A stretch of DNA of 64,000 bases, from positions 70,838-134,837 of the forward strand of contig JAGVNI010000007.1 in the NCBI GenBank assembly GCA_020053355.1, given 5' to 3'. This DNA is from an archaeon. GTDB taxonomy: Archaea; Micrarchaeota; Micrarchaeia; Anstonellales; Bilamarchaeaceae. This document shows positions 14,856 through 54,291 of this stretch, piece after piece (the first letter of the stretch is position 1; each line of letters opens with the position of its first letter). The notes under the pieces are model-generated. The model ran no database searches. It saw only the letters and a program-made list of their open reading frames with translations, and was not told where the DNA came from. The translations under genes were made by a program, and so were the position numbers.

Positions 14856-16103
14856 TCAGAGCATCACTCTTTCGCCAGGAAGCGGGGCAACCGACTTGAA
14901 CCCGTGCTCCTCTTCCAGCTCTTGCGCGAAATCCTCGGGCTTGTCGCCGTGGACGAGGAGGATTTTCTCAGGGTTCGCCTTCTTGATGAACCTTAGGAGG
15001 TCGGTGCGCCCGGCATGCGCTGACAAATCCAGGTATTCGACCGGCAAGTCGACCGCCAGTTCCTGCCCGTCTTTCACGATATTGCCGTTGTTCTGGAGCA
15101 TCCAGCCGTTCGTCCCTTCCACGCAGTAGCCCGTGAAGATGATTTTCGATTCTGAGTTCGCATTGAAGATATAGTTCAGGACCGGCCCGCCGTTCAGCAT
15201 GCCCGCGGTGGATATTATCACCGAAGGCTCGCGAAGGGCAGCCTTCTTGTCCGGGATGGACTGCACCAGCGTCACGCTCCGGACCGCCTTCTTGAACGAG
15301 TCCGGGTCTTTTAGGTATTTGGGGTACGCCATGTAGATGCGCGACATCTCGCGGCCCATGCCGTCGACGAAAATCGGTATCTCCCGGTCGTAGCTCCGGA
15401 GAAGCGCAATCAATTCCTGCGTCCGGCCGAGGGCGAAAGCCGGGAGCAATACGTTCCCGCCGTTTTCCAGCGTCTCATAGATGCTCTCCATGAACTTCTC
15501 TTCCGCCTGCCTCCTCGGCGGGTGGTCCCTCTTGGCATACGTGCTTTCAATCATGAGGGTGTCCACGCCTTCGGCGAACTTCGCGCCCCTGTGCATGAAC
15601 GTCTCCTCGATTTTGAAGTCGCCGGTGTAAAAGAAGCTCTTGCCCCTGTGCGTTATCTCCACCATGGCCGCGCCGCTGATGTGGCCTGCGTCATACAGCT
15701 CGATTTTCGTCTCCCCGCTGTTTATCGGATGCCTGTATAAGAGCGGGTTCCAGAATTTCTGCGCCTTCTTGAGGTGCCCCAGGCGATAGGGCAAATCGTC
15801 CCCCATGATTTTCATCGAGTCCATCCAGAGGACTTCGCAGATGTCCTTCGTGGGCGGGGTCGAGTACCATCGTATCCGGTTCTGGACGTAAAGGGCGGGG
15901 ATGCAGCCCGAATGGTCCAGGTGCGCATGCGAGAGCACCATCATGTCCGGCTTGACCGGAGTCTCGAGGGGGAACTTGGCCTGCCCGCTCTCGTCGAATA
16001 TCTTGATTCCGTAGTCGAGCATGATGTTGCGGTCAGTATGAAGCATGAACGCGCTCCGCCCGACTTCCCTTGAGGCGCCCAAACATTCGACGAATGTCTC
16101 CAT
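14856..16103 (-). CDS. beta-CASP / metallo-beta-lactamase ribonuclease (aCPSF2/RNase J-like)
   Basis: The HxHxDH motif (SHAHLDHSG) plus downstream beta-CASP motifs. 415 aa, with no KH domains. Confidence 0.8.
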   Translation of the reverse strand: METFVECLGASREVGRSAFMLHTDRNIMLDYGIKIFDESGQAKFPLETPVKPDMMVLSHAHLDHSGCIPALYVQNRIRWYSTPPTKDICEVLWMDSMKIMGDDLPYRLGHLKKAQKFWNPLLYRHPINSGETKIELYDAGHISGAAMVEITHRGKSFFYTGDFKIEETFMHRGAKFAEGVDTLMIESTYAKRDHPPRRQAEEKFMESIYETLENGGNVLLPAFALGRTQELIALLRSYDREIPIFVDGMGREMSRIYMAYPKYLKDPDSFKKAVRSVTLVQSIPDKKAALREPSVIISTAGMLNGGPVLNYIFNANSESKIIFTGYCVEGTNGWMLQNNGNIVKDGQELAVDLPVEYLDLSAHAGRTDLLRFIKKANPEKILLVHGDKPEDFAQELEEEHGFKSVAPLPGERVML

Positions 16104-16177
16104 GGTGCAGAATCGGATACAAAACTTTAATAGTTACCTCTCCCCTTCAATCTTTGCTCCCAAGCACAGATGCCGTA

Positions 16178-18003
16178 TGGAAGGCCAGGCAATATTGGAT
16201 TTCGAGTGGATACTGCTGTTTGCCGCAATCGCCGGCATAGTCGCAGTCCGCCTCAGGATGCCACCCGTAGCAGGCCTGCTGCTTGCGGGGATGGTGATGG
16301 GCCCGAACATGCTCAACCTCGTCGACCTGCCCACGATAGACATGCTTGCAGAGCTCGGCGCGGTCCTCCTCCTATTCATGATAGGCGTCGAATTCTCAAT
16401 CACCAAGCTGCTTTCATCAGGCCTTCGCGCAATAATAAGCAGCGCCATCCTCGTCTTCCTCACGTTCACGGTGATGCACGAAGTGGCAATACTCCTCGGC
16501 TACGACTATGTGACCTCCCTTTTCATAGCCGCCATGCTCTCGCTGAGCAGTACGGCAATCATGATGAAGATTCTCGAGCAGAAGCGCCTGATAGACCGCC
16601 ATGAGACCCCCGTGCTCATCACCATGCTTATAATAGAGGACCTGATCGCCGTCTTCATGCTCACGTTCTTCTCCAGCATGAAATCCGGCACCTTCAGTTC
16701 CGAAGACCTAATCGGCGCAGTCCTAGTCTCCCTCGCGGTCATGGTGTTCGCCTATCTGGTGCTCCTTCGCTTCCTGAAAAAGTTCTCAACCCTGTTCTTG
16801 CGCTACCAGGCCGAGGATACGCTCATCCTCTTCGCGTTCGCCCTTGGCGTCGGCATGAGCGTGCTCGCCTCGGTCGTCGGGCTCACCCCCTCAATCGGCG
16901 CGTTCCTAGCAGGAAGCCTGATAGCCGGCCTGCCGATTGGCCGCGATGTCGAGCATGCGATTAGGCCTTTCAGCCATGTCTTCTCGTCATTCTTCTTCCT
17001 CTCGGTCGGGATGCTCATCAACCCGGCCGTCATGATAGTGTCCGCCGACCTAACAGCAATCCTGATAGCCGCATTCATGGTGACGGTGTTCCTTGCGACC
17101 GCATTCACATTCTTCTTAATCAGCTCCAGCGGGCGTTCGTCCGTCTTTGCCGGCCTGGCGATGCTGCCCCTGGGCGAGTTCTCCCTCCTTATCGCCAAGG
17201 AAGGCGTGGGCGTCGCATCCGCCGACCTGGTCGGTATAGCATCAATCGGCGTGCTGATCACTTCCCTGGCATGTTCCATCTCCTTGAACCGCAGCGAGCG
17301 CATGTACGCATGGCTCAAAGACAAACTGCCCGTCTGGTTCCTGGACAGCCTGAGGGACGCTTCCGGGTATTTCAGGAACGTCTTGTGCGCTTTCGAGCCG
17401 GGCGGGTACTTCCACCGTATTTTTATCGCCGAGCTGAAAAAGAGCTACTCCGACATCTTCTACATCGTGGGCGCGCTCATCTTCTATTATGCGGCGAAAC
17501 CGTACCTGCAATTCGAGATGGCCCTGTTCGGCTACAGCATCATGGCCTACTCGGCTCTTCTGATGCTGATGGCCGCCCTTTTCCTTGTTTCACTCACCCG
17601 CCTGTTGCTTTCAGCCAAGCGCATGTTCGACGCCCTCGCCACAATTTTCTCGAGGTCCACACCCCAGGCCAGCCGGGCGTCGATTGTCCGGAACATCCTG
17701 ATCGCCGGCACCCTTTTCATGCTGTTCGCCAACTCCTACCTGTTCATCGACATCCTGAAACTGCCCAAGGAATTCAACTGGGCGTCATTGCTCTTCGGCG
17801 TCCTGTCCGTCTTCTTCCTCTGGAGCGCCATCCGCGCATCATCGTTGTGGCTGTTCCTGCGCGAGCACAGGCCGCTCGACATCCTCAAAAGCCAGATTGT
17901 GGCCTCGAAAGACGATTTCATCATAGTAGGTGGTGACGGCGGCCCCAAGGAAAAGAAGAAGACGAAGACAGGCGGCAGGAAGAAGGTCATCTTCCTCAGA
18001 TAA
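16178..18003 (+). CDS. Monovalent cation:proton antiporter (CPA2/Na+/H+ exchanger family)
   Basis: The likely start is MEGQAILDFEWILLFAAIAG. The protein is polytopic (12 or more TM helices) with characteristic GxxxG-rich helices. The listed ORF starts upstream at 16045 with a non-membrane extension. Confidence 0.75.
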
Positions 18004-18057: not shown

Positions 18058-18544
18058 TATGGCCGGCATCGCTAAGTTTAAATTACGCGTATCCAGATAT
18101 CATATGTATATGCCGACGCTCGACCCAGTCGCGAAAAGCCTTCTTAACGGCGTAGCCCTGATACTGATTCTATACGTCGTTGCAGTGCCGTTTTTCATAT
18201 ACATCGAAGGCTTGACGATGATTGAATCCATTTACTTCGTCACGGTGTCGATAACAAGTGCCGGTTACGGGGACATAGTGCCTAAGACGGATGCGGGACG
18301 CATGTTCACGGTCGTCCTCCTGCTCTCCGGGGTTTCGATATTCTTCTATCATGTGACGCACATCGGCCAGTTCAAGGAGAGGATGATTGACCCGCACATC
18401 CAGCGCAGGCTCCAAATCCTCCGCAACCTGACCTCCCTCCAGGGCGGGGAAATGGAATCGGCCCAGCTCAAGAAAATCAAGGAGAAGATGTATCTGGACA
18501 AGGACAAGGGCGATGACCGGAACCAAGGGTTCGGTAGGCTATGA
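18058..18544 (+). CDS. Two-TM K+ channel (KcsA-like pore, filter TSAGYGD)
   Basis: The likely start is MAGIAKF. It has TM1, a pore helix, a selectivity filter (SITSAGYGD) and TM2. Its stop overlaps the next gene's ATG (ATGA). Confidence 0.7.
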
Positions 18545-19239
18545 ACGCCCCGGACCTCTATGGGGAGAAGTTCGCCAGGAATCCTATCACGAAGGCCCAG
18601 CAGGCCCGGGTGCAAAAGTCGGTATTCGCGATAATCGGCCTCGGAGGGACGGGCGGCTTCATACTCGAGAACCTGCTCCGGATGGGGGCCGAGAAGCTCG
18701 TTGTTTTCGACCACGACCGCTTCGAGCTCTCCAACTTCAACCGCCAGTCGCTCGCGACCGAGGAATTCCTGGACATGCCGAAAGTCCACGCGGCAATCGC
18801 GCGCGCAAAAACCATCAATAACGGCATCGACATCCGCACGCATGAGGAGTTCGGCGAAGAGTCGGGCCCGGCTATCAAAGGCGCCGACATCGTCCTGGAC
18901 GGGACGGACAACGTGAAATCGAAGCTCATCCTTTCCCGGATGGCCCGCTCAATGGAAATTCCGTATGTCTTCTGCTCAGCCCAGGATTCGCGGGGCATAG
19001 TCAGCGTCTTCACATCGTATCGGTTCGAGAAAGCATTCCACCTCCCGAAAGAGGAGGAAGCCCTCGAGCGCTACCAGATGTGCCAGAGCATCATCTGCCC
19101 AGCCGCTTCGCTCGCAGGGACGCTCGCAGCATCGCAGGCCGTTAATGTCCTTCTGAAAAAGCCCTTCGCCAAGGCCCCGCAGGCGATTTTCTTCGACCTC
19201 TTCAAAAAGGACGTGTTCTGGAAGGGGCGGCTCGGATGA
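18541..19239 (+). CDS. ThiF/MoeB/HesA-family E1-like protein (possibly TcdA-like)
   Basis: A Rossmann motif (AIIGLGGTGG) and the ThiF fold signature. It is short (232 aa) and lacks a CxxC zinc motif. Confidence 0.8.
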   Translation: MNAPDLYGEKFARNPITKAQQARVQKSVFAIIGLGGTGGFILENLLRMGAEKLVVFDHDRFELSNFNRQSLATEEFLDMPKVHAAIARAKTINNGIDIRTHEEFGEESGPAIKGADIVLDGTDNVKSKLILSRMARSMEIPYVFCSAQDSRGIVSVFTSYRFEKAFHLPKEEEALERYQMCQSIICPAASLAGTLAASQAVNVLLKKPFAKAPQAIFFDLFKKDVFWKGRLG

Positions 19240-19526
19240 ACGATTTCTTCGTGATTGCCCCGTGCGCTACCGCAAACGGTGTGGAGATTAAGCTTAACGG
19301 CAAGACTATTGACATGGCCAAAGCCGGGGCCGCGTTTACCAAGCTGGGCGATGTTGTGGGCAGCAGCCCGGTCGTCCTCCTTGCGAAAATCGGCGGCTAT
19401 TCCGTCAGCGTCTACGGGAGCGGAAGGATGATGGTGAAGGGAAAGCGCAAGCCGTCGGACAAGGCGGCAAATGCGCTTGCCAAGAAAATAGTCTCAGCTC
19501 TCGAAAAGGAAGGTGCGCTCATATGA
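19236..19526 (+). CDS. Small hypothetical protein (96 aa), coupled on both sides
   Basis: ATGA overlaps with both the upstream E1-like gene and the downstream PHP gene. No C-terminal GG. Confidence 0.5.
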   Translation: MNDFFVIAPCATANGVEIKLNGKTIDMAKAGAAFTKLGDVVGSSPVVLLAKIGGYSVSVYGSGRMMVKGKRKPSDKAANALAKKIVSALEKEGALI

Positions 19527-20188
19527 GAATCGATTTCCACGTCCACACGAATGCATCCATCGACTCCCTAATCGAGCCGAACGCCCTTGCAAGGAAATCC
19601 CTCGAAACCGGCATCATCCCGGCAATAGCGGACCACAACAATATCGGTTCGCATGCGAAGATGCGCGCCCTCAAGGCACCGTTCATACCGGCCGAGGAGA
19701 TTTCCACAGACAAGGGCGACCTGATAGGCCTATTCATCAGCGAGCTGATTCCCAAGAAGACGCCCATCCTTGAGGCAATCGACATAATCCACGCCCAGGG
19801 CGGCCTTGCCTACCTCCCGCACATGTTCGACTACGGGCGCTCGAAAGGCCGTGCGAGCGAGGGCGAATCGTCGAAAGCCGACATCATAGAAATCTTCAAC
19901 GCACGCTGCATGCGCAAGGAATACAACGAGAATGCGGCGGCGTTCGCGAAAGCGCACAAGCTTCCCGGCGCGGCAGGGAGCGACAGCCACTTCTTCTTCG
20001 AATTCGGCCGGACATACACCGACCTTCCGGATTTCGGCCCCGGCGACTTGGACAACCCGAAGACGCTCCTAAAATCCCTTCATACCCAAAACCCGAAACT
20101 CGTTACCCATACGGCCCCATTCTTTGTCCGGGGCACGACCTCAATCATCGCCATGACCAGGAAGCTTTCGCGCGCGCTCCGCAAATGA
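19523..20188 (+). CDS. PHP-domain metal-dependent phosphoesterase
   Basis: MRIDFHVHTNASIDS...AIADHNN...GSDSHF are the PHP His/Asp motifs. Confidence 0.8.
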   Translation: MRIDFHVHTNASIDSLIEPNALARKSLETGIIPAIADHNNIGSHAKMRALKAPFIPAEEISTDKGDLIGLFISELIPKKTPILEAIDIIHAQGGLAYLPHMFDYGRSKGRASEGESSKADIIEIFNARCMRKEYNENAAAFAKAHKLPGAAGSDSHFFFEFGRTYTDLPDFGPGDLDNPKTLLKSLHTQNPKLVTHTAPFFVRGTTSIIAMTRKLSRALRK

Positions 20189-20251: not shown

Positions 20252-21352
20252 ATGGCTGAATCTTTCGTCGGCATTGAAGTTGCCGTCATCGTTGTCACCG
20301 CGTCCATCGTCCTTGCCGGCATACTGGTCGGCCTCGGCCGGGCATTCGGCTTCAAGCGAATCGAGATGTTCGGGCTTGAGGAGCTGATACAGTCCATAAT
20401 CAACGCGGCAATCATAGGCTCCTTCGCCGCGGTAATCGAGCTTGTCGGCGTGATAAGCTCCTCGGTTGTCAGCGAGACGTGCTCCAAAGGCAACGTCATC
20501 ATGCAGCTTTCCTGCACCCTCGGCAACCTCAACGACGCCCTCTTCTCGCTCATGCAGGGGATGATTCAGCTCCTGAATATCGTCGGCTATTACCAGGACC
20601 TCGCCTTGGATTTCGGCGCGTTCTCGGTCTCCCCGTTTTCGAACCTCGCTTCCGTTTCCGGCGCACTTTCCCAGCAGCTCCTCAACATCAATACGTTGAT
20701 GATGCTGGTCGAATTGAACACCCAGATAGCGGCATTCATCGGGCAGAACGCCCTCGCCCTGCTGTTCCCTGTCGGGCTCGTCCTGCGCACGTTCTTCGCC
20801 ACAAGGAAAGTAGGGGGGTTCATGATAGCCCTCGCAATCGGCCTCTACGTCTTCTACCCGACTTTCATCCTCATCTTCCCGGACCCGGCGCCGGACATCA
20901 TGAACTCCACGATTCTGGTTGAGAACTTCACGAACAACAGCTTCTATGCGGCCGCCCCGGTGATAGACCTTAATGGCAACTACGCGATAGCAGGCAAACT
21001 CGACCTCCTAAGCGGTAGGTGCAACCCGGCCGACTACAACCTCTCGACCTGGATAGTTTTGGAAAACGGTACCAACGTCACCCACTCCACCAACGTCTCG
21101 AACACCACCACAATGTGCGACGACTACCTCATTTCGCAGAACTGGACCTCGAATGTCACAGCCAACCACACCATCGACATGAGCGGCGAATTGACGATGA
21201 TTCTCCAGTCTGACAGCAGCTCGCTCGCAAAATCCGCCCTGTATTCCGTCATCGCGCCCATCTTCTCGCTCGCAGTGACGTTCGTCTTCGTCCGGGAGCT
21301 TGCGAACATCCTGGGTAGCGAAATCGGCTTCAAGACAATCGCGAGCATATGA
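20252..21352 (+). CDS. Polytopic membrane protein with a densely N-glycosylated extracellular domain
   Basis: 366 aa with several TM helices. There are about 14 N-x-S/T sequons within roughly 120 aa, including NSTILVENFTNNS...NLSTWIVLENGTNVTHSTNVSNTTT...NWTSNVTANHT. Confidence 0.6.
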   Translation: MAESFVGIEVAVIVVTASIVLAGILVGLGRAFGFKRIEMFGLEELIQSIINAAIIGSFAAVIELVGVISSSVVSETCSKGNVIMQLSCTLGNLNDALFSLMQGMIQLLNIVGYYQDLALDFGAFSVSPFSNLASVSGALSQQLLNINTLMMLVELNTQIAAFIGQNALALLFPVGLVLRTFFATRKVGGFMIALAIGLYVFYPTFILIFPDPAPDIMNSTILVENFTNNSFYAAAPVIDLNGNYAIAGKLDLLSGRCNPADYNLSTWIVLENGTNVTHSTNVSNTTTMCDDYLISQNWTSNVTANHTIDMSGELTMILQSDSSSLAKSALYSVIAPIFSLAVTFVFVRELANILGSEIGFKTIASI

Positions 21353-21356
21353 TGGC

Positions 21357-21545
21357 ATGGCGATGCTTTCCCACAATCCCAACATCCTCTTTGCGACCGT
21401 CGCAGTCGTAGTCGCGTGGATTGTCATCTTCCAGCCGCTATCGAGGGCGTTTCCCGACCTGGGCCTCCTCTTCATCGGCCTCTGGCTCCTCTTCACCCTC
21501 GCCGCCTTTCTCTTCTTCCTGATGAGGATCTGGGGCCGCAAGTAA
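21357..21545 (+). CDS. Small 2-TM membrane protein (about 62 aa)
   Basis: MAMLSHNPNILFATVAVVVAWIVIF...LGLLFIGLWLLFTLAAFLFFLM. The start is chosen after the stop of the upstream gene. The listed ORF at 21300 overlaps the previous gene. Confidence 0.4.
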   Translation: MAMLSHNPNILFATVAVVVAWIVIFQPLSRAFPDLGLLFIGLWLLFTLAAFLFFLMRIWGRK

Positions 21546-21586
21546 TTGGATTCAGATTTTTAAACCATGCAATCGAAGGGATTTAC

Positions 21587-22369
21587 ATGTTCATGAACCG
21601 CGCCGTGACGGGCATCTCGCTTCTGGGCGGGCTTGTCGCAATCGTAATCTCCCTCCTTACAGGAAATCCGATAATGCCAATCGTCGCGGCTGTCTTCTTC
21701 TCCATGACGATGCTCCTCTGGAAATACGGGTATCTTATAATACCGTTTTTCACGAAAGCGACCAACATAATCGAGGTCCACGGCGGATACGAAGTCCCCC
21801 CGACCCGCGACTACATCATAAAGAAGGACGAGAACGGCTATTACGCGAGCAAGTTCCTCGAAATCCGCTTCTACGAGAGCTCGATGGACAAGAACACGGA
21901 AGAGAAGAAGACGATGTTCGATTCCTTCGAAAAGGCAATCAGCTCCCTCAAATACATCGTCAAGATATCGCTGATGATTAGCACCCTCGATTTGTCCAAG
22001 CACATAGATGAAATCAAGACCAAGCGCGGCAGCGTCGAAGCCAAGAAGGCGAAAGAGTCGAAAATCGCCGCGGACGAGAGCATGCGCATGGACAGGGAGC
22101 TTGCATACTGGAACCGCCTCCTGGACCGCATCACGCAGGGCGAGAGGCCGGTCGAAATCATCGCCTTCGCCACCACGACCGCATTCGGCCTCACAAGGGA
22201 CGAGGCCCTAAGCAGGGTGAGCAGGCAGGCCAAGGAACTGAAGACGATTCTTTCAAGCTCGCTTGGCTGCGATATCCGCGACCTCACTGATTTGGAGATG
22301 CTCCGCTGCTTCGAGTGGGACTTCTTCTTCCCGACCACGCAGGAGGAAATCAAGGACGCGTTGTTCTGA
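21587..22369 (+). CDS. Membrane-anchored protein (2 N-terminal TM helices plus a soluble domain)
   Basis: The start is taken at MFMNRAVTGISLLGG, in frame with the listed 21416 ORF, whose 5' part overlaps the small membrane gene. Confidence 0.5.
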   Translation: MFMNRAVTGISLLGGLVAIVISLLTGNPIMPIVAAVFFSMTMLLWKYGYLIIPFFTKATNIIEVHGGYEVPPTRDYIIKKDENGYYASKFLEIRFYESSMDKNTEEKKTMFDSFEKAISSLKYIVKISLMISTLDLSKHIDEIKTKRGSVEAKKAKESKIAADESMRMDRELAYWNRLLDRITQGERPVEIIAFATTTAFGLTRDEALSRVSRQAKELKTILSSSLGCDIRDLTDLEMLRCFEWDFFFPTTQEEIKDALF

Positions 22370-22451
22370 TTTCTCCGGAACCAAGTTTTATCCCGAACCC
22401 AAAACCCGAAACCGGGAACCGGAAACCCCAATCGCCAGACCGCCGTTCCTC

Positions 22452-22464
22452 CAGCCATTATATT
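22452..22464 (+). promoter_or_regulatory. TATA-like element upstream of the ATPase gene
   Basis: TTATATTTATATA lies about 50 nt upstream of the ATG at 22511. Confidence 0.3.
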
Positions 22465-22510
22465 TATATACCGCCCCGGCGATAGTTCTTACGTCTGAGG
22501 TAAGGCAACG

Positions 22511-24109
22511 ATGAAATCATCCTATATGCTCTCCAAGGAGGTCGCACGCAAGATGATTCTTGTGCATCCCCCGGAGCCGAGGAAAGAGCTTCTGCTTTCG
22601 CTCCCGACACAGGGCGTATATATCGGAAAGACGCGCTTTCTTAGGACGCCCGTCTTCTGGAACCCCGCAAAACTCATCAACCCGCACCTTGCGATAATCG
22701 GCATAACCGGCTCGGGCAAATCCTACACCGTGAAGACGTTCCTCACCCGCGCATCCATGATTTGGAACACGAACGCGGTCATATTGGACTGGGTGGGCGA
22801 ATACAACGAATGGGTGAGGCAGGCAGGCGGCCGCGTCATTAACCTGGCCAAGGAGCGCCTGAACATCCTCGACCTCGTCGGCCTCCCGAAAAGGAGCAGG
22901 ATAAAGCAGATTATCTCCGCCCTCGACATCCTACTCGACCTTAAAAGCTACCCGAACGAGCGCGACGACATAGAAGAGGCGCTCGAATTCGTCTATTACA
23001 AGGCGAATAGCGCAAAACCATCGCTCAAGGAGCAGGCCAAGGCGATGCGGGACGAGCAGAAGAAGATGCATAAGTTCAAGCTCAATAAAGAGGACGTCAA
23101 GGAGGCGCTCGGCGAACTGTGCGAAGGCGGAAGGTGCGAGAAGCCGACGCTTGCGCATGTCGTCCATATACTCGAACGCAATGGCAAGAAGAAGGCGGCG
23201 CGCCTAGTCAAGCGCTTCACGGCCGAAGGTTCGGATTTCTTCGCAGGCTCCTCGACGCTGAACATCAAGGACATAACGTCCAGCGGCCTGGTCGGCATCG
23301 ACCTGCACGACCTTCCGAGCGAGGAGATGCGCTCCCTTGCCGGCCTCACAATCCTGCAGTATATCAAGGAGCTGATGCGCGCCGAGGGCATGCAGAAGGA
23401 CAACAAGCATGTGCGCCTTTTCGTCGTGCTGGATGAGGCGTGGAAAATCGCCCAGGATGAGCGCTCGGACGTCATAACAATCGTCCGCGAAGGGCGCAAG
23501 TACAATTTTTCCTTGGTCATCGCCACGCAGAACCCCTCGGACATGCATAAGACGATTTTCAGCAACATCGGGACGGTGTTCGTCCTGCGCCTTATCCTAA
23601 AGGAGTATCGCGACTATGTCCGGAACTCAATCGGATATTCCGATTTCATCGACGGGGAGATATCCAAGTTCGGCGTGGGCGACGCCGCAGTCAACATGAT
23701 ATTCGCGGAAAGGCAGTCCCGCGTCATGACGTTCCTCATGGACAAGATTGACGGGGAAGAGCCATTGCTCATATACAAGATTCGGGGTGGAGAGATGATT
23801 GTCGAAATAGAGCGGGAGCAGTTCGTGCGGATGCTTTACGAGATAGGCCTCAACGAAAGCCAGCTCGGCCTGATTAAAAGCGAGTTCGAGCGCGGGGACG
23901 GCCTCCTCGACGGGGAACAGCTGGTTGCCGTTTTGGAGAAATTCGGCTACTCGAAGCCGTCCATAATCTCGTTCCTGCGCCAGTTGGGCATAGATGAGAA
24001 GAACCTCATCAAGGTCTTCTCGCTTGTCCGCATGCGCAAAGCCACAAAAGGCGTCGTGAACGTGGTCCTCGAGGACGGGGCGAACCCGCCATCCCTCAAG
24101 GGAATCTAA
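22511..24109 (+). CDS. VirB4/HerA/FtsK-superfamily ATPase (DUF87-type)
   Basis: Walker A (GITGSGKSYT), Walker B (LFVVLDEAW) and REGRKYNFSLVIATQNPSD, which is typical of DUF87, TraG-like and VirB4-like ATPases. Confidence 0.75.
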   Translation: MKSSYMLSKEVARKMILVHPPEPRKELLLSLPTQGVYIGKTRFLRTPVFWNPAKLINPHLAIIGITGSGKSYTVKTFLTRASMIWNTNAVILDWVGEYNEWVRQAGGRVINLAKERLNILDLVGLPKRSRIKQIISALDILLDLKSYPNERDDIEEALEFVYYKANSAKPSLKEQAKAMRDEQKKMHKFKLNKEDVKEALGELCEGGRCEKPTLAHVVHILERNGKKKAARLVKRFTAEGSDFFAGSSTLNIKDITSSGLVGIDLHDLPSEEMRSLAGLTILQYIKELMRAEGMQKDNKHVRLFVVLDEAWKIAQDERSDVITIVREGRKYNFSLVIATQNPSDMHKTIFSNIGTVFVLRLILKEYRDYVRNSIGYSDFIDGEISKFGVGDAAVNMIFAERQSRVMTFLMDKIDGEEPLLIYKIRGGEMIVEIEREQFVRMLYEIGLNESQLGLIKSEFERGDGLLDGEQLVAVLEKFGYSKPSIISFLRQLGIDEKNLIKVFSLVRMRKATKGVVNVVLEDGANPPSLKGI

Positions 24110-24126
24110 GCGGAGGTGGCACATAA

Positions 24127-24831
24127 ATGGCCGAAGAGAAAATCACGGTATCCGGAAAACAGAAGAAGCCGCTTAAAAGCCTGGCCACGCTGCTGAGCGG
24201 GCTCGGCTTCACAAGGATAACCTATGCCAAGAACGTGCTCTCTGTCGAGAAAATCAAGGGCACCGACCTCCAGGGCAAGCCGTACCTTGAATACCGCGTG
24301 GAATTCAAGGACGACACCATCGACTTCCTCTACAGCTTCTCAGCCAAAAGGAGCCGCATCGCCCGCCTTCTCGACCTTATGCCGACATTCCTGAACATAC
24401 TCCAGGTGGCCGAGGACTACTACGATGTCCGGCCGACCGGCATCTTCATGCACATCAACGCGCTTCTTTCCGAGACGTCCAAGATAATCGACCGCGACGC
24501 ACTCGAGTTTTCGACGCAGCTCTCCGAGCTCCAGGCGCGCTATACGGACATGAACGCCAAATACGACGACCTTGTCCGCTCGGGCGAGGCGAACACGCGG
24601 CTCCTCCTGGAGTGCGAAAGGAAGCGGGATGAGGTCCAGAAGAAACTGACCACGCTAAGCGGCATGGGGGACGACCTCCTGAAAGAGACCCTGTACAGCT
24701 GGATTAAGCTCCACGGCGGGACAATCGACGTCCGCGAATTCTCCAAGGCGCACACGGTCGCGGTCACAAGGGCCGAAGACGGCCTCAACATGCTGATACG
24801 CGAAGGCTACATCCGGAGGCGCTTCGAATGA
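24127..24831 (+). CDS. Hypothetical soluble protein with a probable C-terminal winged helix
   Basis: 234 aa, lying 18 nt after the ATPase gene. Its stop overlaps the next ATG. Confidence 0.5.
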   Translation: MAEEKITVSGKQKKPLKSLATLLSGLGFTRITYAKNVLSVEKIKGTDLQGKPYLEYRVEFKDDTIDFLYSFSAKRSRIARLLDLMPTFLNILQVAEDYYDVRPTGIFMHINALLSETSKIIDRDALEFSTQLSELQARYTDMNAKYDDLVRSGEANTRLLLECERKRDEVQKKLTTLSGMGDDLLKETLYSWIKLHGGTIDVREFSKAHTVAVTRAEDGLNMLIREGYIRRRFE

Positions 24832-25106
24832 GCCGGAAGAGGAAAAAGAAAGCGGGCGCATCCGCAGCAAGCCAATCACGTTCGAACGAAGCTGGAAACC
24901 GGAAACAGGAAACCGCGAACCCTGCGCAGGAAGCGGAAGGCGCGGGGCAGGAAGCCCCCATCACCCAGTACATCTTCACCTTCGAGCTGATCCGCCACTA
25001 TCCGACGGTGCGCTCGTTCATCGTGAAGCAGCCGCTCAAGCGCTCGTTCAAGGATACGGTGTCCGAGCTGTTCGGGGGCAACAAGAAAGGGGTTTACCGG
25101 ATATAA
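24828..25106 (+). CDS. Small basic protein (92 aa)
   Basis: ATGA overlap with the upstream gene. The N-terminus is Lys/Arg-rich. Confidence 0.4.
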   Translation: MSRKRKKKAGASAASQSRSNEAGNRKQETANPAQEAEGAGQEAPITQYIFTFELIRHYPTVRSFIVKQPLKRSFKDTVSELFGGNKKGVYRI

Positions 25107-33272: not shown

Positions 33273-34403
33273 CTATTTCCCCGCAATCTTCACCGCATCC
33301 ATGCAGGAATCCAGATACTCGTCGTCTATTCCGGTCACTTCGAGCCTCGTGCATTTCGCGCTCATGCCAAGGATGCCGGAGATGCTCGGGTTCGTCCTTC
33401 CGCTGTCTCCTGAAATGAGTTCCTTGATGTACGTTCCCGCCTCTGCCTTGATGATTAGCGTGGCATGCCTTGCATCCTGCCCTTCCCTGCGGATGAATTC
33501 CAGGTGCTTGATTTTCCGGTGGCGCACCAAATCAGCCCTCCGATGGGCCACGCGCGTGGGCGTCTGCTGGAGGAGCATCACGCCTTCAAGGGAGCGGATT
33601 TTCGCGGCTTCGCCCTCCCCGACATCCCCCCCGAATTCGACCTGCGCCTCATATGTCTTGTCGAAATGCGACTCAGTAACGACTTCCACGAATGAGCGGG
33701 GCACGAATCGCAGGTCCACCACTTCCACCTCGCCGCTCGCTGCGATGTCGCTGGCAAGAGTGCCGAGGTCGAACGCCCTCCTCTCCGGTGCGCTCACTTC
33801 CAGGACGAACGGCCTTCCGGCGCTGTTGGTGGCGTCGACATCCTCCCTCCCCGAAGCATGCATCACGTAATTTTTCGCCCCGGACGTTTTTTCCACCGGC
33901 TCGCCTATCCTCTCCTCGACGGATTCGTAGAATTTCCCCTTCCCTTCGCATCCTGGGCAGCCTTTTCCGTCGCATTTGGAGCATTTCCACCTGCTCTGCG
34001 AAAGGCCGGCCGCGCGTTTCTTGTACCTGCCGAATATGAACACGTCGCATTTCTGCAAATCAACGGCTCCCTTGGAAAAATCGAAAACAAGCCTGCATTC
34101 CCCCTCCGGCTGGTATTCGGCCCCGCCCGCTTTCCGGAGCGCTGAGGAAATCCTCCTATTCAGCAGGTTCTTTATGCTCTCGCCCTGCCTAAGGTGCGAG
34201 TCCCAGGCCTTCTCTTCCCTGGCCAGCCATTCCTTGTCAATCACCGTGGAGATGGAGAAGCTTTTCGCGCCATCGGCGGCAAGCATTGCAATGCCCGTCT
34301 CAATCATCCCGTCGCATTTGAGGGCTCCGCCCTCGCAAATCGCGCACTCGCCCTCCCCGAAGCGGGAACCGTTGGCCAGGTTGCAGATTTTACAGAGTAG
34401 CAT
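33273..34403 (-). CDS. pus10: tRNA pseudouridine synthase Pus10
   Basis: An N-terminal Cys-rich zinc ribbon, a THUMP-like middle and the catalytic region (HASGREDVD). This is the archaeal Psi54/55 synthase family. Confidence 0.75.
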   Translation of the reverse strand: MLLCKICNLANGSRFGEGECAICEGGALKCDGMIETGIAMLAADGAKSFSISTVIDKEWLAREEKAWDSHLRQGESIKNLLNRRISSALRKAGGAEYQPEGECRLVFDFSKGAVDLQKCDVFIFGRYKKRAAGLSQSRWKCSKCDGKGCPGCEGKGKFYESVEERIGEPVEKTSGAKNYVMHASGREDVDATNSAGRPFVLEVSAPERRAFDLGTLASDIAASGEVEVVDLRFVPRSFVEVVTESHFDKTYEAQVEFGGDVGEGEAAKIRSLEGVMLLQQTPTRVAHRRADLVRHRKIKHLEFIRREGQDARHATLIIKAEAGTYIKELISGDSGRTNPSISGILGMSAKCTRLEVTGIDDEYLDSCMDAVKIAGK

Positions 34404-42998: not shown

Positions 42999-44183
42999 TC
43001 AAAGCGTCGTCTGCCTGCTTGAGAGCATTTCCCGCATGAGGACGCCCTGCTCCATGAACCGCGAGAGCGGCAGGCGCAGCCTTGTGGACACATAGTTCAG
43101 CGAATCCCTGAAAGAGAGGAATTCCCTATGCGGCTGCAAAAGGGCGTTGCGGACATTCTCCCTGACGTTGAAAACGCCGAGCGGCACGTATCCCTCATAA
43201 GCCTCGCGCAGGACGATGGCCCCGGCCTGTTTCCCCATCCTCTTCATGGCTTCCAGTACTGCGAACTTGCAGCTGTAATAGCATCCGCCGACGGATGAAT
43301 ATCCGCTTTTCGGCCGCAGGGACTCATGGTCCGCGAAAATCATCTCCTCCTTCCCCATGATATGTATGAACGCCTCAATCCATTCGTACTGCCACGGCGT
43401 GGGGGTGAGTATGACCGAATAGTAATTGTTGAGGCTGGCAAACTCATATACGTGGAACGAGTCGATGACGTCCAGATGCCTTACCTCATCGTAAAGGTGG
43501 TCGGCGAGCGCGCTGTCCACCGCGGTGATGGACCATCTCGTAGGGACGAGCTTGCGGTTCTTGCGAAGGCCCATCGTCCCTGTGGAAAATGCCTTCTGTA
43601 TCTGGGAGAAGAGGACGCCTTCATGGAAGGCATCCGCAACAGCGTCTGCCGCCAACAGGTCCGTATCGTAAAATGATTTCTCGAGGTTTCGCTCCCACCG
43701 GACATTCCCGATGTCGAAGCGCTCGATGGAGCCGCTCGGCCCGAAAGGCTGGTGGTCCTCGTTGAACGTGAACCCGCGCGGCTTGTGGCGGAACTGCGCC
43801 TCGCTGTCAACGCTGTCCCTGGCAAGGGAAATCTCCTGGAGCTTGCCGACAAGCCGGTTGTCCAGCTCCTTTATGCCGACCCGGTGTTTTCCCCGGACCA
43901 AATCCAGCCTGAAGCGGATGATATCCTCCTGGCTTTTTTTGCCGGGAATCCAGGTCTCCGGTGTGTCAAGGATGGCCGTGTCGCCTTCGTAAGGCGCAAT
44001 CATCGGCCCGACATCCACCCTGGGGTATCCGTAATTGCCGATGAAAACCGATGGCGGCGAGCTGCCGTCAAGCCTTTCCCCGACCTCGACCGTTCGCCAC
44101 TGCTGGACGTTCGTCGTGATTTTCTTGAGGTAGGCGCCCTTTCCCATGCCCATAATCGTTCCCACTCGCCCTGGCTGTCTCAT
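42999..44183 (-). CDS. NreA-like (COG1602) archaeal DNA repair-associated protein
   Basis: [18 protein letters not shown] resembles the conserved Nre motif. It lacks an N-terminal zinc ribbon. Confidence 0.45.
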
Positions 44184-46551: not shown

Positions 46552-46705
46552 CTGATATGTATCTCGGAAACACTTTATAAATGTTTATTTTTATGGTCAA
46601 ATGTAATTTTCCATACCCCCCCTGCAAGGCCGACATGCCGCGCGCACATGGCTTGCGATATGATTTAATTACTTTATGCCCATCAGATTGCTCACTACTT
46701 TGACT

Positions 46706-46776
46706 GCGACCGTAGTCTATCGGTATGATTCGAGGTTGCCAATCTCGCGGGCCGGGTTCAATTCCCGGCGGTCGCA
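46706..46776 (+). tRNA. tRNA-Gly (anticodon GCC)
   Basis: The acceptor stem is GCGACCG/CGGTCGC with discriminator A. The D-loop has GG. The anticodon stem is CGAGG/TCTCG with loop TTGCCAA. The T arm is CCGGG-TTCAATT-CCCGG. A T-run follows. Confidence 0.6.
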
Positions 46777-46778
46777 AA

Positions 46779-49531: not shown

Positions 49532-50617
49532 ATGGTGAACGTTATGGGAATTCTCTTAGCCCCGGGCCCGGTTCCGGTTTTGAAGGAAATATCAGAAGCG
49601 CAGTGCAAGGAGATGATAACGCACCGGAGCGGGGATTTCACGAAGCTCTACGGCGACATCGTCACGCGCCTGAAAGCATATTTCGGTGCCGAGGAGGCGT
49701 ACGTCATCACCGGTTCGGGCGCGCTCGGCCTCGAGACGCTCATCCTCAATCTCTGCGAGAAAAACGACCGCGTCCTCTGCCTGCCGAACGGCGAATTCGG
49801 CGACCACCAGGCGACCACCGTCAAGGTGTATGCCGATGCGACTGTCGAGCGCCTTGAGGACGGGAAAGGCTGGAACCTCGAGCGCGCGAAGCCGCATATC
49901 GATGCGAGCAGGGCCAAAGTGCTTGCGATGGTGTACAACGAGACATCGATGGGTGTCCGGAACGACATAAAAGAGATTTGCCATTACGCGAAATCCAAAG
50001 GCATGCTCACGATAATAGACGGCATCTCGGCATGGCCGGGCACCGAGTTCAACATGGAGGAATATTCCGTGGATGCCTTCGTGACCGGAAGCCAGAAGGG
50101 CATCGCAGCCCCGCCAGGAATGGCGCTCGTCGGGCTTTCAAAAGAGGCCGTCGGCATCTTCACGAAGCGCACGTTCATCCCGAGCTATTATTGCGACCTC
50201 CGCAGGCACAAGAAGCGCTACGAGCAGGACCAGCAGACGCCGAACACGCCTGCGGTCACCCTGTTCTGGGCCCTGCAGAAGGCTTTCGACGTGATGGACG
50301 GCAAAGGCGGCCTTCCGGCAGCGGTCAAGCGCCACAAGGAGGCATCCCTGCATGTGCAGGCGCGCCTGAAGACGATGGGGTTCCCGCTTACGGCCGAGGC
50401 CGGGTTCGAGTCGAATACCGTGACCGGTTTCGTCTGCAAGGATGCCGAGGGGGCCAAGGGCATAAAGGCGAAACTGGCATCAGACTACCAGATAAAGATT
50501 GTCGGCGCGCGCGGCAAGTTCAAGGACAACGGCCTCAGAATCGCGCACATGGGCAACTTCGAGATGAAGGACCTGGACGCCTGCCTGGACGGGATAGAGA
50601 AGATTATCCGGGGCTGA
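49532..50617 (+). CDS. Class V aminotransferase (SPT/AGT or PSAT-like), PLP-dependent
   Basis: The TGSQK lysine motif and the overall class V layout. Confidence 0.8.
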   Translation: MVNVMGILLAPGPVPVLKEISEAQCKEMITHRSGDFTKLYGDIVTRLKAYFGAEEAYVITGSGALGLETLILNLCEKNDRVLCLPNGEFGDHQATTVKVYADATVERLEDGKGWNLERAKPHIDASRAKVLAMVYNETSMGVRNDIKEICHYAKSKGMLTIIDGISAWPGTEFNMEEYSVDAFVTGSQKGIAAPPGMALVGLSKEAVGIFTKRTFIPSYYCDLRRHKKRYEQDQQTPNTPAVTLFWALQKAFDVMDGKGGLPAAVKRHKEASLHVQARLKTMGFPLTAEAGFESNTVTGFVCKDAEGAKGIKAKLASDYQIKIVGARGKFKDNGLRIAHMGNFEMKDLDACLDGIEKIIRG

Positions 50618-53325: not shown

Positions 53326-54291
53326 ATGAGGGAGCGGATTGCGGCATTGGCGCGCGAGATTCGGGAGGGCTACGAAAGCCTGGGCCGCAAGGCCAAATCG
53401 GCCCGTGATGCCGACCCCTCGCTTGTGCTGGCTGTTCGCCGCGCCCCGGTCACGCTTTCCGCCTGCGCAGTGGATGGCGGCCTCCTTGCCGAGCGGATGC
53501 ACGGTGCGGATATCGTAGTGGCACGGGCTGTAGCTGCCCACTTCGTCTATGAAGGGTCAGCCCTCAAATCGTTCTCCTATACCCCATCGAAAAGCCCGCA
53601 GCCGGAAATCGAAATAAGGAACTCGCTCGAAGAGCACGAAGCGCTGATTTTCCGCTCGCTCATCCGCCTCAGGCACGAACTTTCCTGCGCACTCGTTGCG
53701 CTTCATTCCCGCAAACCGAATCTCCTCCTGCTCGACGGCTCGCTCCTCCCCCTTCCAGGGGACCGCCCCCAGGAAAGCAGCGAATTGCGTCCCCTCTACG
53801 ATGAGGTGGTTTCGCTTTACGGAAAACTGTACAAGGATTGCGCGGAAAACAATTGCATGCTCTGCGGCGTGGTGAAGGATTCGCGCTCGCGCAAACTGTC
53901 CCGTGAACTTGGCGCCTCCTGCTCGGACACCCTCCTTTGCGGATACCTCCTCGATGAGAATGAACGGACGCGGGAGATGGGATATTTCGAAGGCAAGGCC
54001 CCGAACGCGGACGTTGCGGCATTGGGCGCCCGCATACGGGTATTCTATCTCCGGCCCTCAAAAAACGACCTTCCTCTCCGCATAGAACTGCTCGATTCCG
54101 GCATCGACGAAGCGGCATCTGTCATCTGCAGCCTCTCGGCCATCAGCGAGAATTTCGCATATCCGGCGGTTCTGATAGAGGCGGATTTGTGCGCGGCGCT
54201 CGACCCGGCGGACCTTGAATCAATCGAGGCGTCGCTCGCGAATCTTTCCGGCCTGAAACCCCTTAGGAGGAATTCCCGGCCTTTCCGCTAG
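53326..54291 (+). CDS. NurA-like 5'-3' nuclease
   Basis: Two NurA-type acidic motifs, CAVDGGL and LLLLDGSLLP. Confidence 0.5.
   Translation: MRERIAALAREIREGYESLGRKAKSARDADPSLVLAVRRAPVTLSACAVDGGLLAERMHGADIVVARAVAAHFVYEGSALKSFSYTPSKSPQPEIEIRNSLEEHEALIFRSLIRLRHELSCALVALHSRKPNLLLLDGSLLPLPGDRPQESSELRPLYDEVVSLYGKLYKDCAENNCMLCGVVKDSRSRKLSRELGASCSDTLLCGYLLDENERTREMGYFEGKAPNADVAALGARIRVFYLRPSKNDLPLRIELLDSGIDEAASVICSLSAISENFAYPAVLIEADLCAALDPADLESIEASLANLSGLKPLRRNSRPFR

Follow-up and report, generated by a model that had tools for sequence, protein, structure and literature searches.

What do a potassium channel, an E1-like adenylyltransferase, a 96-residue protein, and a PHP-type phosphoesterase do together? 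The question is raised by a stretch of 64,000 nucleotides from a Micrarchaeota (DPANN) archaeon (referred to below as the window), in which ORF calling and direct reading of the letters gave four ORFs in a row on the + strand, joined by three ATGA overlaps. The relevant features, together with the gene that precedes them, are the following.

16045..18003, + strand: CPA2 cation/proton antiporter, directly upstream of the channel gene (Na_H_Exchanger, 1.4e-43)
18059..18544, + strand: two-TM K+ channel, 161 aa, from the in-frame ATG at 18059 (Ion_trans_2, 3.8e-17)
18541..18544, + strand: ATGA overlap of channel stop and ThiF start, read directly
18541..19239, + strand: minimal ThiF/MoeB-type E1-like adenylyltransferase, 232 aa (ThiF PF00899, 3.6e-39)
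19236..19239, + strand: ATGA overlap of ThiF stop and TBP-domain gene start, read directly
19236..19526, + strand: free-standing protein of one TBP domain, 96 aa, carrying an invariant Cys10 and a hairpin motif
19523..19526, + strand: ATGA overlap of TBP-domain gene stop and PHP start, read directly
19523..20188, + strand: compact metal-dependent phosphoesterase of the PHP superfamily, 221 aa, resembling TrpH/RNase AM (PHP_C, 6.1e-09)

An earlier, sequence-only reading of this DNA had reported the chain of four genes with its three ATGA junctions and the CPA2 antiporter just before the channel, and both observations were borne out by the letters. The channel start, which had been placed at 18058, was off by one base; the mechanically called ORF opens at a GTG at 17930, and ATGs at 18104 and 18110 are further candidate starts. 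Because 4-base overlaps are frequent in this genome, making up 6 of the 39 same-strand junctions of the window, three of them in series are only mildly unusual. Within the operon, an Rfam scan revealed neither a riboswitch nor any other RNA element, and a promoter and terminator scan revealed neither a sigma-70 nor a terminator signal.

Conservation was assessed in about 120 related loci, with junctions counted from the nonredundant ones. The operon was recovered from 45 Micrarchaeota loci at GTDB species level, the ThiF identity falling to as little as 38%, and from dozens of metagenome contigs; throughout a whole class, it occupies a fixed position. The junction between ThiF and the TBP-domain gene is the strictest of the three, being ATGA in 60 of 71 related junctions. 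An ATGA also joins the TBP-domain gene to the PHP gene in 58 of 89 cases and the channel gene to ThiF in 25 of 69, the latter junction showing seven TTGA and eight one-base overlaps in addition. The overlaps are conserved across species down to the lowest ThiF identity, and the genes form a real, tightly coupled unit found in 45 species-level loci, so their adjacency is not incidental. A survey of ThiF neighborhoods across archaea, suggested by the sequence-only reading, gave a divided answer: the genes are syntenic in Micrarchaeota, but no synteny was seen in the loci outside this phylum (L058–L091). The operon is conserved and Micrarchaeota-specific.

This restriction, the overlap frequency in the window, and the conservation nearby of two further genes (an unrelated beta-CASP gene on the opposite strand and the CCA-adding enzyme) are what would be expected if compact, syntenic Micrarchaeota genomes with frequent 4-nt overlaps had inherited this gene order in the absence of any shared function. 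We consider such a scenario improbable. Against it stand the persistence of the overlaps at low ThiF identity, the survival of the TBP-domain gene and PHP pair in at least three upstream contexts (ThiF, a K+ channel, CorA or a LigT-like gene), and a bacterial gene fusion, described later, that independently confirms the link between E1 and TBP domain.

The deepest conserved unit is not centered on the E1. The TBP-domain gene adjoins the PHP gene in 58 of 64 PHP-anchored loci, whereas ThiF is present in only about half of the related loci, and about 24 PHP-anchored loci have the pair without ThiF (arrangements K.T.P, CorA.T.P, and o.T.P). Since ThiF is facultative, the invariant core consists of the TBP-domain gene and PHP, and a reading that puts the E1 at the center is weakened.

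Where it occurs, the ThiF protein has the Rossmann-type adenylation domain of PF00899, and its ATP/Mg2+ motifs are invariant in 15 diverse orthologs: G33–G39 (GxGxxG), N67-R68-Q69, K81, and D120/D123 (DxxDN). Judged by these motifs, it appears to be a complete and active MoeB-type E1. It ends in an invariant -LG with no fused C-terminal domain, and there is no structural zinc site, as neither the 232-aa protein nor its orthologs contain a CxxC. Its scores fall below the equivalog cutoffs for both ThiF (TIGR02356, 111.6 bits versus 275.25) and MoeB (TIGR02355, 73.3 bits versus 376.55). The sequence-only reading had allowed that the protein might cluster firmly with TcdA, the tRNA ct6A dehydratase; this identity is ruled out by scores and structure, the protein being MoeB-like. 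Antiphage E1/E2 systems (CBASS Cap2, Bil/Bub) were also rejected, since they gave only generic E1-domain matches of at most 46 bits, with no E2 and no JAB, and since the core-genome position of the operon is fixed rather than island-like. A gene for a sulfur carrier or ubiquitin-like (Ubl) protein, sought as a small ORF ending in GG, was found neither in the 64-kb window nor in the flanks of any related locus. Thiamin and Moco synthesis are generally missing in DPANN archaea.

The 96-aa protein itself gave no Pfam or NCBIfam matches, and its assignment came from structure and from its family. The protein folds as S1-H1-S2-S3-S4-S5-H2, and its similarity to TBP is significant in both structure and profile; the family profile matches TBP with an E value of 6.7e-10, and 39 of 80 family members match Pfam TBP. 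Weak matches to DUF3378, the N-domain family of RNase HIII, were obtained for 38 of the 80 members (best 1.9e-4), and 14 aligned with positions 263–335 of the 338-position MoeB/ThiF model PRK12475. Relatives retrieved by deep searching (n = 83) are 50 to 147 aa long, with the exception of one spurious match. Instead of the two tandem repeats that form the DNA saddle of TBP, there is a single repeat, and the protein is thus a free-standing, Cys-bearing single TBP domain. Its motifs are the invariant Cys10, in a “PC” motif, and an S-x-Y-x-S-G-R/K-x-x-x-K hairpin; the only side chains that are universally invariant across the ThiF-linked, ThiF-less, and CorA-linked groups are the Cys, G63, and K68. 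The gene for one distant family member overlaps that of a ThiI-type PP-loop ATPase (L012), another adenylating thiolation enzyme.

Known single-domain relatives help to place the protein. It shares fold and detectable homology with TBP and with the “monopartite” TBP-domain proteins of Thermococcales (Brindefalk et al. 2013), which also consist of one domain of about 95 aa. Compared with TBP, it has an extra N-terminal strand and the invariant Cys, and it is operonic with enzymes. The N-terminal domain of RNase HIII is likewise a single TBP-like domain serving a hydrolase; however, that domain is fused to RNase H, whereas the micrarchaeal one is separate and lies beside a PHP gene, and the similarity is weak.

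A beta-grasp fold, for which a check had been proposed, was not found, the TBP fold being present instead. The reported absence of a C-terminal GG was correct, the protein ending in ...EKEGALI, and identity as a beta-grasp Ubl, ThiS, or MoaD is ruled out on both counts. Makarova and Koonin (PMC2948915) have proposed a role as Ubl analogs for small TBP-like proteins that accompany E1 enzymes or are fused to them, and the translational coupling of the 96-aa gene to an E1 would suit a non-beta-grasp, ubiquitin-like modifier activated by that enzyme. We regard this as very improbable. In addition to lacking the GG, the tail (...LEKxGA[IL][IL]) reads as the helix cap and hydrophobic stretch that end a TBP repeat; the C-termini in the family either read GA[IL]x or are absent, with the tail missing or variable in distant members. 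Moreover, the corresponding domain in Bacillales is located C-terminal to an E1 whose real substrate context is ThiS or MoaD, and the 96-aa family persists without an adjacent E1 in many loci.

The Bacillales proteins just mentioned are five ThiF/MoeB enzymes of 332 to 352 aa, the C-termini of which match the family profile with 18 to 27 bits. Their genes lie in thiO-thiS-thiG-thiF or moaA-moeB-moaC contexts, and the proteins contain both CxxC zinc motifs. All five carry an LCGR[DN][TS]VQ motif, the Cys of which aligns with the invariant Cys10. Judged from these alignments, the additional domain at the C-terminus of bona fide ThiF and MoeB from Bacillales is a homolog of the 96-aa protein, Cys included. 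The “tiny unknown partner” of the earlier reading is thereby identified and tied to an unstudied domain of Bacillus enzymes. ThiF pairs encoded on Bacillus plasmids (L094), which were also considered, are plain 282- to 288-aa proteins without a TBP-like domain.

[quoted passage not shown] 2013 (PMC3597702) noted the TBP-like domain in a “ThiF-MoeZ-MoeB group”; the architecture is described in both studies, yet uncharacterized. Our literature search located no function for the C-terminal domain of Bacillales ThiF/MoeB, no link between PHP and TBP-like proteins, and no study of ThiF in Micrarchaeota. Hence, the claim that the locus is not a described arrangement was only half true: the combination of E1 and TBP-like domain was already known, in ordinary Bacillales ThiF/MoeB, but the pairing with PHP and the recurrent channel are undescribed.

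Since the same Cys-bearing domain is fused to Bacillales ThiF/MoeB, we infer that ThiF and the 96-aa protein represent an in-trans form of the E1–TBP-like architecture. The two types share a MoeB/ThiF adenylation domain accompanied by a TBP-like domain, a conserved Cys that directly precedes strand S1, and, in the Bacillales (PRK12475) type, a ...F/Y-x-x-G-R-x-x-x-H/K-G hairpin comparable to that described above. In the micrarchaeal operon, however, E1 and TBP domain are not on one polypeptide but in separate frames with an ATGA overlap, both in the window and at most related junctions. The micrarchaeal E1 lacks the two CxxC motifs and the invariant crossover-loop Cys, there are no thiS/thiG or moa genes near the locus, and PHP and channel are co-encoded. 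The small protein is only remotely similar to the fused domain (about 20–27 bits). As it is no closer to the ThiF-fused domain than to TBP (about 25 bits each), “split gene” can be used as an architectural analogy only, rather than as a claim of fission.

The best explanation, to which we would assign somewhat less than even probability, is that the Cys-bearing TBP domain acts as a thiol or persulfide relay for the E1, with PHP as its obligate partner. The core of TBP-domain gene and PHP is normally preceded by a cation channel, and in the clade of the window ThiF is inserted between the channel and the TBP-domain gene. According to this scheme, ThiF and the 96-aa protein would form a two-subunit version of the E1–TBP-domain enzyme. 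ThiF would adenylate a carboxyl group, most probably the C-terminal one of a sulfur carrier or Ubl protein whose gene lies elsewhere, and the Cys of the TBP domain, as a thiol or persulfide, would then resolve the acyl-adenylate. By analogy, it would take the place of the rhodanese domain in MoeZ/MOCS3/Uba4, which combine an E1 domain with a C-terminal rhodanese, whereas the micrarchaeal module has a TBP fold. If the Cys is indeed a sulfur or acyl relay, this would explain how thiocarboxylates are formed where ThiI or MoeB lacks a rhodanese domain. More speculatively, the partnership of PHP with the TBP-domain protein might be obligate even without ThiF, and PHP might hydrolyze a phosphoester of the same cycle, perhaps a nucleotide by-product such as AMP, pAp, or a 5'-phosphorylated dinucleotide; alternatively, it could remove a phospho or AMP adduct from the small protein. 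The co-translated channel could be a stoichiometric partner or a supplier of the cation. In favor of the relay stand the homology, Cys included, to the fused Bacillales domain, the intact E1 motifs of ThiF, the strictly kept junction with the TBP-domain gene, the invariance of the Cys across groups, the overlap with a ThiI-type gene in L012, and, for PHP, the full set of metal ligands and its adjacency to the TBP-domain gene. Several observations speak against it: the TBP and PHP pair persists without ThiF, so that the small protein has a role independent of this E1; a persulfide-relay role leaves PHP and the channel unexplained; and neither the window nor the flanks of any related locus contain a Ubl or sulfur-carrier gene, in archaea that generally lack thiamin and Moco synthesis.

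A broader reading, which we find doubtful, is that the Cys-bearing single TBP domain is an unrecognized catalytic or relay module, a counterpart of rhodanese, that works with adenylate-forming enzymes and, in Micrarchaeota, with PHP and a channel as well. The same doubt applies to its second half, namely that a Micrarchaeota system wired to PHP and a cation channel has no described equivalent. The settings of the module would then be fused (Bacillales ThiF/MoeB), in trans (here), and beside a ThiI-like PP-loop enzyme. If true, an enzymatic role would be added to the TBP fold, single-domain forms of which have been discussed as possible TBP ancestors.

Turning to the phosphoesterase, PHP_C was matched with 35.7 bits (cutoff 21.3), and PF02811 with only 18 bits (cutoff 26.4); an N-terminal PHP match was weak (0.0038). 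The NCBIfam CehA/McbA domain gave 2.6e-12, far below cutoff, and neither equivalog was reached for RNase RNM (7.8e-09, 35.2 bits versus 375) or nucleoside bisphosphate phosphatase (24.3 bits versus 400). The closest PDB entry is RNase AM (7ug9, 1.3e-05), and the PDB search gave no sequence match to EndoQ-type PHP endonucleases. The full metal-ligand set is invariant (H6, H8, D14, D37, H38, E58, E59, D66, H100, D154, and H156), and from this set the enzyme is predicted to be catalytically complete. The idea that the Cys of the small protein serves as a missing metal ligand is unsupported, as all nine ligand positions can be supplied by PHP itself. The protein shares the PHP fold, PHP_C, and the full ligand set with TrpH/YciV (RNase AM) and Cv1693-type enzymes; it is about 70 residues shorter than TrpH-type enzymes and, by score, no equivalog of RNase AM or pAp phosphatases.

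These properties bear on the possibility of a two-subunit PHP nuclease or phosphatase for RNA or DNA ends or nanoRNA, in which the TBP-domain protein would bind the substrate, as the TBP-like N-domain does in RNase HIII; ThiF, where present, would be a TcdA-like nucleic acid–modifying adenylyltransferase or a later, loosely related insertion. No unit is conserved more deeply than the pair, PHP has a 5'-3' exoribonuclease as its nearest solved relative, and a trans-acting binding subunit is plausible because of the missing 70 residues. The DUF3378 matches point in the same direction, as do the basic ThiF-linked small proteins (median pI 9.2) and a series of upstream and flanking genes: a LigT-like 2H phosphoesterase (L149), FEN-1, a tRNA deacylase, the CCA-adding enzyme, and the beta-CASP RNase. 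However, these RNA/DNA genes are variable or on the opposite strand, the small proteins of the ThiF-less groups are not consistently basic (median pI 7.8 and 8.4), ThiF is MoeB-like rather than TcdA-like, and a pure binding role leaves the invariant Cys unexplained. Overall, we judge a nucleic acid module of this kind, including the role it gives to ThiF, to be unlikely. Should the operon merely encode a nucleotide-scavenging hydrolase and an ordinary E1, it would be of local interest only.

The channel is a clear PF07885 member (62.4 bits versus 22.5), with a pore helix and a GYGD filter between two TM helices; the region reads ...SITSAGYGDIVP..., with the selectivity filter ...TSAGYGD.... 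In its Ion_trans_2 pore domain and GYGD filter, it is like the KcsA-like two-TM prokaryotic K+ channels, from which it differs in lacking a gating domain and in being translationally coupled to soluble enzymes. The C-terminal tail is charged. In most related loci, the gene immediately before ThiF, or before the TBP-domain gene, encodes an orthologous K+ channel, and a cation channel (this K+ channel or, in another lineage, CorA) occupies the directly upstream position in 46 of 52 judged loci.

The recurring channel keeps alive the earlier suggestion that the locus may concern ion homeostasis. In such a module, the TBP-domain protein and PHP, with or without ThiF, would serve the channel from the cytosol, as a regulatory or accessory unit, possibly hydrolyzing a channel-gating nucleotide signal or using the Cys as a redox-sensitive switch. 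It would fit this picture that two unrelated families share one slot, with stop and start codons often overlapping or abutting, that the channel itself lacks an RCK or any other ligand-binding domain, and that CPA2 and Na/Ca exchangers are frequent further neighbors. Nevertheless, we consider a channel-regulating role rather improbable. The two-channel coincidence was noticed post hoc, and the channel is absent from several loci that keep ThiF, the TBP-domain gene, and PHP (L041/L009, L047, and L053). Furthermore, the C-terminus of the channel is not conserved among relatives, neither the TBP-domain nor the PHP fold occurs in any known channel regulator, and the whole block, including the opposite-strand beta-CASP gene, is syntenic in this lineage, so that the linkage may partly be inherited order.

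Both the obligate pairing with PHP and the recurrence of a K+ or Mg2+ channel could point to a housekeeping function specific to DPANN archaea. The CPA2 antiporter, the linkage of which to the channel had been thought odd, is a facultative upstream neighbor seen in some related loci only and lies outside the conserved core.

The four genes, delimited by listing ORFs and by reading the bases directly, follow one another on the forward strand.

Genes of the unit (family matches from Pfam/NCBIfam)
ATG 18059 to stop 18544, +: K+ channel; Ion_trans_2 match
18541–19239, +: ThiF-family gene; ThiF match
19236–19526, +: 96-codon gene; no family match for its product in Pfam or NCBIfam searches
19523–20188, +: PHP gene; PHP_C/PHP match

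The sequence-only reading had placed this unit at 18058–20188. Its four genes and three ATGA overlaps are present (18541–18544, 19236–19239, and 19523–19526, all read directly), but a start at 18058 is one base off frame. Four-base overlaps occur at 6 of the 39 same-strand junctions in the window and, because they are frequent in this genome, the ATGA chain alone is weak evidence. The stronger argument for coupling is overlap conservation in relatives: ATGA is found at 60 of 71 ThiF/small-protein, 58 of 89 small-protein/PHP, and 25 of 69 channel/ThiF junctions of related loci. ThiF neighborhoods were compared by a local profile scan of nine contigs found via the small protein or ThiF and of 45 species-level Micrarchaeota genomes (GTDB). 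The order channel–ThiF–small protein–PHP occurs in almost all ThiF-anchored Micrarchaeota loci, with ThiF identity down to 38%, and the operon is tightly coupled and conserved. Synteny, without which the adjacency could have been incidental, holds in almost all of these Micrarchaeota loci but not in bacterial ThiF loci L058–L091, where the same scan found none of the partner genes.

The CPA2 antiporter said to precede the channel does lie directly upstream (Pfam/NCBIfam); it and the downstream genes vary among ThiF-anchored loci. Its mechanically called ORF (16045–18003, +, 652 aa) overlaps a divergent beta-CASP gene (14856–16103, −) by 59 nt, and translation probably begins further downstream, since orthologues have 598 to 616 aa. 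About 240 C-terminal residues past the exchanger domain match no family.

The 96-aa protein, first taken for a tiny partner of no known family that might have a beta-grasp fold, is a free-standing single TBP domain. Close relatives from a word-indexed search numbered just 19, every one of them from a Micrarchaeota MAG; when 1.8 billion cluster representatives were scanned in full with an HMM, the number rose to 83, of 50 to 147 aa except for one spurious match. The 80-member profile matches Methanocaldococcus TBP with an E-value of 6.7e-10, and 39 and 38 of the 80 members match Pfam TBP and DUF3378 (the RNase HIII N-domain family), respectively. A ubiquitin-like identity was ruled out in favor of this homology. 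The C-terminus (...LEKEGALI) would be the helix-cap-plus-hydrophobic element closing a TBP repeat, judging from alignment to TBP and from known TBP sequences. Every one of the 80 aligned members has Cys10, which sits in a “PC” motif immediately ahead of strand S1; the further members that were inspected all keep it, as do the three operon types. Universal positions are otherwise limited to G63 and K68, in the S4–S5 hairpin.

Fourteen of the 80 members also match positions 263–335 of PRK12475 (“MoeB/ThiF family adenylyltransferase,” 338 positions), outside the ThiF domain proper; the window's ThiF matches positions 7–223. (Some members match positions 505–583 of PRK13795, a 635-aa archaeal hypothetical family.) We retrieved five fused enzymes from Bacillales replicons.

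ThiF/MoeB enzymes with a fused C-terminal TBP-like domain (L095:2492–3514, L176:766–1779, L177:760–1779, L178:742–1740, L179:721–1779)
Cytobacillus thiF: within thiO-thiS-thiG-thiF-thiD-thiE
B. mycoides and B. velezensis moeB: adjoin moaA/moaC or mobA/glp
Listeria homologue: adjoins moaB/moaA
Paenibacillus thiF: after thiG

These enzymes, genuine ThiF and MoeB of thiamin or Moco operons, have 332 to 352 aa, and all five C-termini match the small-protein profile (18–27 bits) and carry the strictly conserved motif LCGR[DN][TS]VQ[IF]R, whose Cys aligns with Cys10. Given the shared domain, the aligned Cys, and the published architecture, the window's ThiF and 96-aa protein are an in-trans form of a known, uncharacterized E1–TBP-like arrangement. 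Gene fission is not claimed, because the small protein is about equally distant from the fused domain and from TBP. The component superfamilies are known, and E1 plus TBP-like architecture is on record for MoeB homologues with no function assigned (2013, PMC3597702), so the sequence-only statement that the arrangement was undescribed holds only in part. What appears to be new is the stand-alone, Cys-invariant TBP-domain subfamily as operonic partner of an E1, the conserved Cys common to this family and Bacillales ThiF/MoeB, the near-obligate TBP-domain–PHP pair, and the recurrent cation channel beside that pair; the literature searched held no paper on any of the four. Nor did it yield a function for the Bacillales domain or its LCGR Cys.

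By profile, the window's ThiF is closest to ThiF/MoeB (111.6 and 90.7 bits, both under equivalog cut-offs), and firm clustering with TcdA is contradicted by a score of 37 bits. A PDB sequence search matched E. coli ThiF at 3e-15; PADLOC gave generic E1 similarity only. The ATP/Mg motifs are invariant among orthologues, the two CxxC zinc motifs are absent from the window's protein, and the crossover-loop Cys is not invariant. The protein is an active-looking MoeB-type adenylyltransferase. All orthologues of the 18541–19239 product end in an invariant ...W-x-x-x-L-G, and the fused Cytobacillus ThiF, Paenibacillus ThiF, and B. mycoides MoeB in ...Y[LI]G; these endings may stem from function or from a constraint that the ATGA overlap places on the coding sequence.

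A PHP-anchored metagenome scan, unbiased as to ThiF, gave loci of the following arrangements.

Arrangements at PHP-anchored loci
Channel–ThiF–TBP–PHP: 23 loci
Channel–TBP–PHP without ThiF: 15 loci
CorA–TBP–PHP: 7 loci
TBP–PHP, upstream not visible: 10 loci
TBP–PHP, other upstream gene: 3 loci
PHP without adjacent TBP-domain gene: 6 loci

The TBP-domain and PHP genes form an invariant pair, being adjacent in 58 of 64 loci, and ThiF is present in roughly half. As an alternative to the E1 partnership proposed below, the small protein may primarily be the substrate-binding subunit of a PHP nuclease. The PHP protein keeps the complete ligand set (H6, H8, D14, D37–H38, E58/59, D66, H100, D154, and H156) and is an active-looking hydrolase; it falls far under every NCBIfam equivalog cut-off. 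Among solved structures it is nearest to RNase AM (1.3e-05), a 5'-3' exoribonuclease longer by about 70 aa. In 46 of 52 judged loci the unit follows a cation channel, which belongs to one or the other of two unrelated families; as a further alternative, the unit may serve the channel. L011, L092, and L093 are independent instances of the CorA arrangement. In a rough, only indicative neighbor-joining PHP tree, the CorA clade and one K+-channel clade without ThiF branch at the base, and operons with ThiF group in a large clade that also holds scattered members lacking it.

CorA (Mg2+/Co2+ channel) loci (L011:2285–4038, L092:2622–4383, L093:4167–5925; also L164, L167, L169, L170, L172, and L175) belong to a second Micrarchaeota lineage and lack ThiF; their genes abut or overlap, and close to its C-terminus the small protein conserves a second Cys (...RGC[FL]xE), where the window's group has invariant Ala94. 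In one metagenome locus (L158:2929–4630), the only such case seen, K+ channel, ThiF, and PHP occur with no TBP-domain gene between, ThiF abutting PHP. Elsewhere, a 177-aa HxTL-motif, LigT/2H phosphoesterase-like protein directly precedes the pair (L149:3185–4648), and a 1040-aa HerA/DUF87 ATPase is encoded upstream of a distant small-protein member on a Diapherotrites contig (L010:1874–5285). Distant member P0218 shares 11 nt with the end of the gene for a 211-aa ThiI-type PP-loop ATPase (L012:4376–5285), another adenylating enzyme paired with the Cys-bearing TBP domain.

We propose that ThiF and the small protein would act as one enzyme, in which the small-protein Cys either accepts a persulfide or makes the attack on the acyl-adenylate, completing thiocarboxylate or thioester formation. 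The proposal draws on the Cys being the sole conserved reactive side chain, on the fused TBP-like domain sitting where MoeZ/MOCS3/Uba4 hold a rhodanese domain, and on Bacillales ThiI, which is not known to carry a rhodanese domain. The PHP protein may serve to clear a nucleotide product or an adduct. The TBP domain, its equivalence in trans to the fused domain, and the conserved operon are well established; the E1-partner/Cys-relay reading as a whole is tentative, and we rate it somewhat below an even chance. It accounts neither for PHP as the small protein's most constant partner nor for the channel. No small ORF ending in GG, a candidate sulfur carrier, was found in the window or any locus flank. 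A class-V aminotransferase-fold protein (49532–50617, +; Aminotran_5, 5.8e-22), of the cysteine desulfurase fold, could be the sulfur donor if sulfur is relayed.

A downstream block (20252–25106, +), kept in several relatives and with most proteins lacking a family match, encodes a 366-aa membrane protein with abundant N-x-S/T sequons, a 317/260-aa protein, a 532-aa HerA/VirB4-like ATPase (DUF87, AAA_10), and 234-aa and 92-aa proteins whose genes share an ATGA. The block may be a module for secretion or of a pilus-like type. Ordinary archaeal genes confirm the host type.

33273–34403, −: Pus10 (tRNA pseudouridine synthase)
42999–44183, −: Nre
46705–46777, +: tRNA-Gly(GCC), the sole Rfam or ARAGORN match in the window
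53326–54291, +: NurA nuclease

An unusual transporter–enzyme fusion at 56401–58254 (+) joins a second CPA2-type Na+/H+ exchanger domain to a C-terminal GNAT domain (Acetyltransf_1, 4.3e-11).
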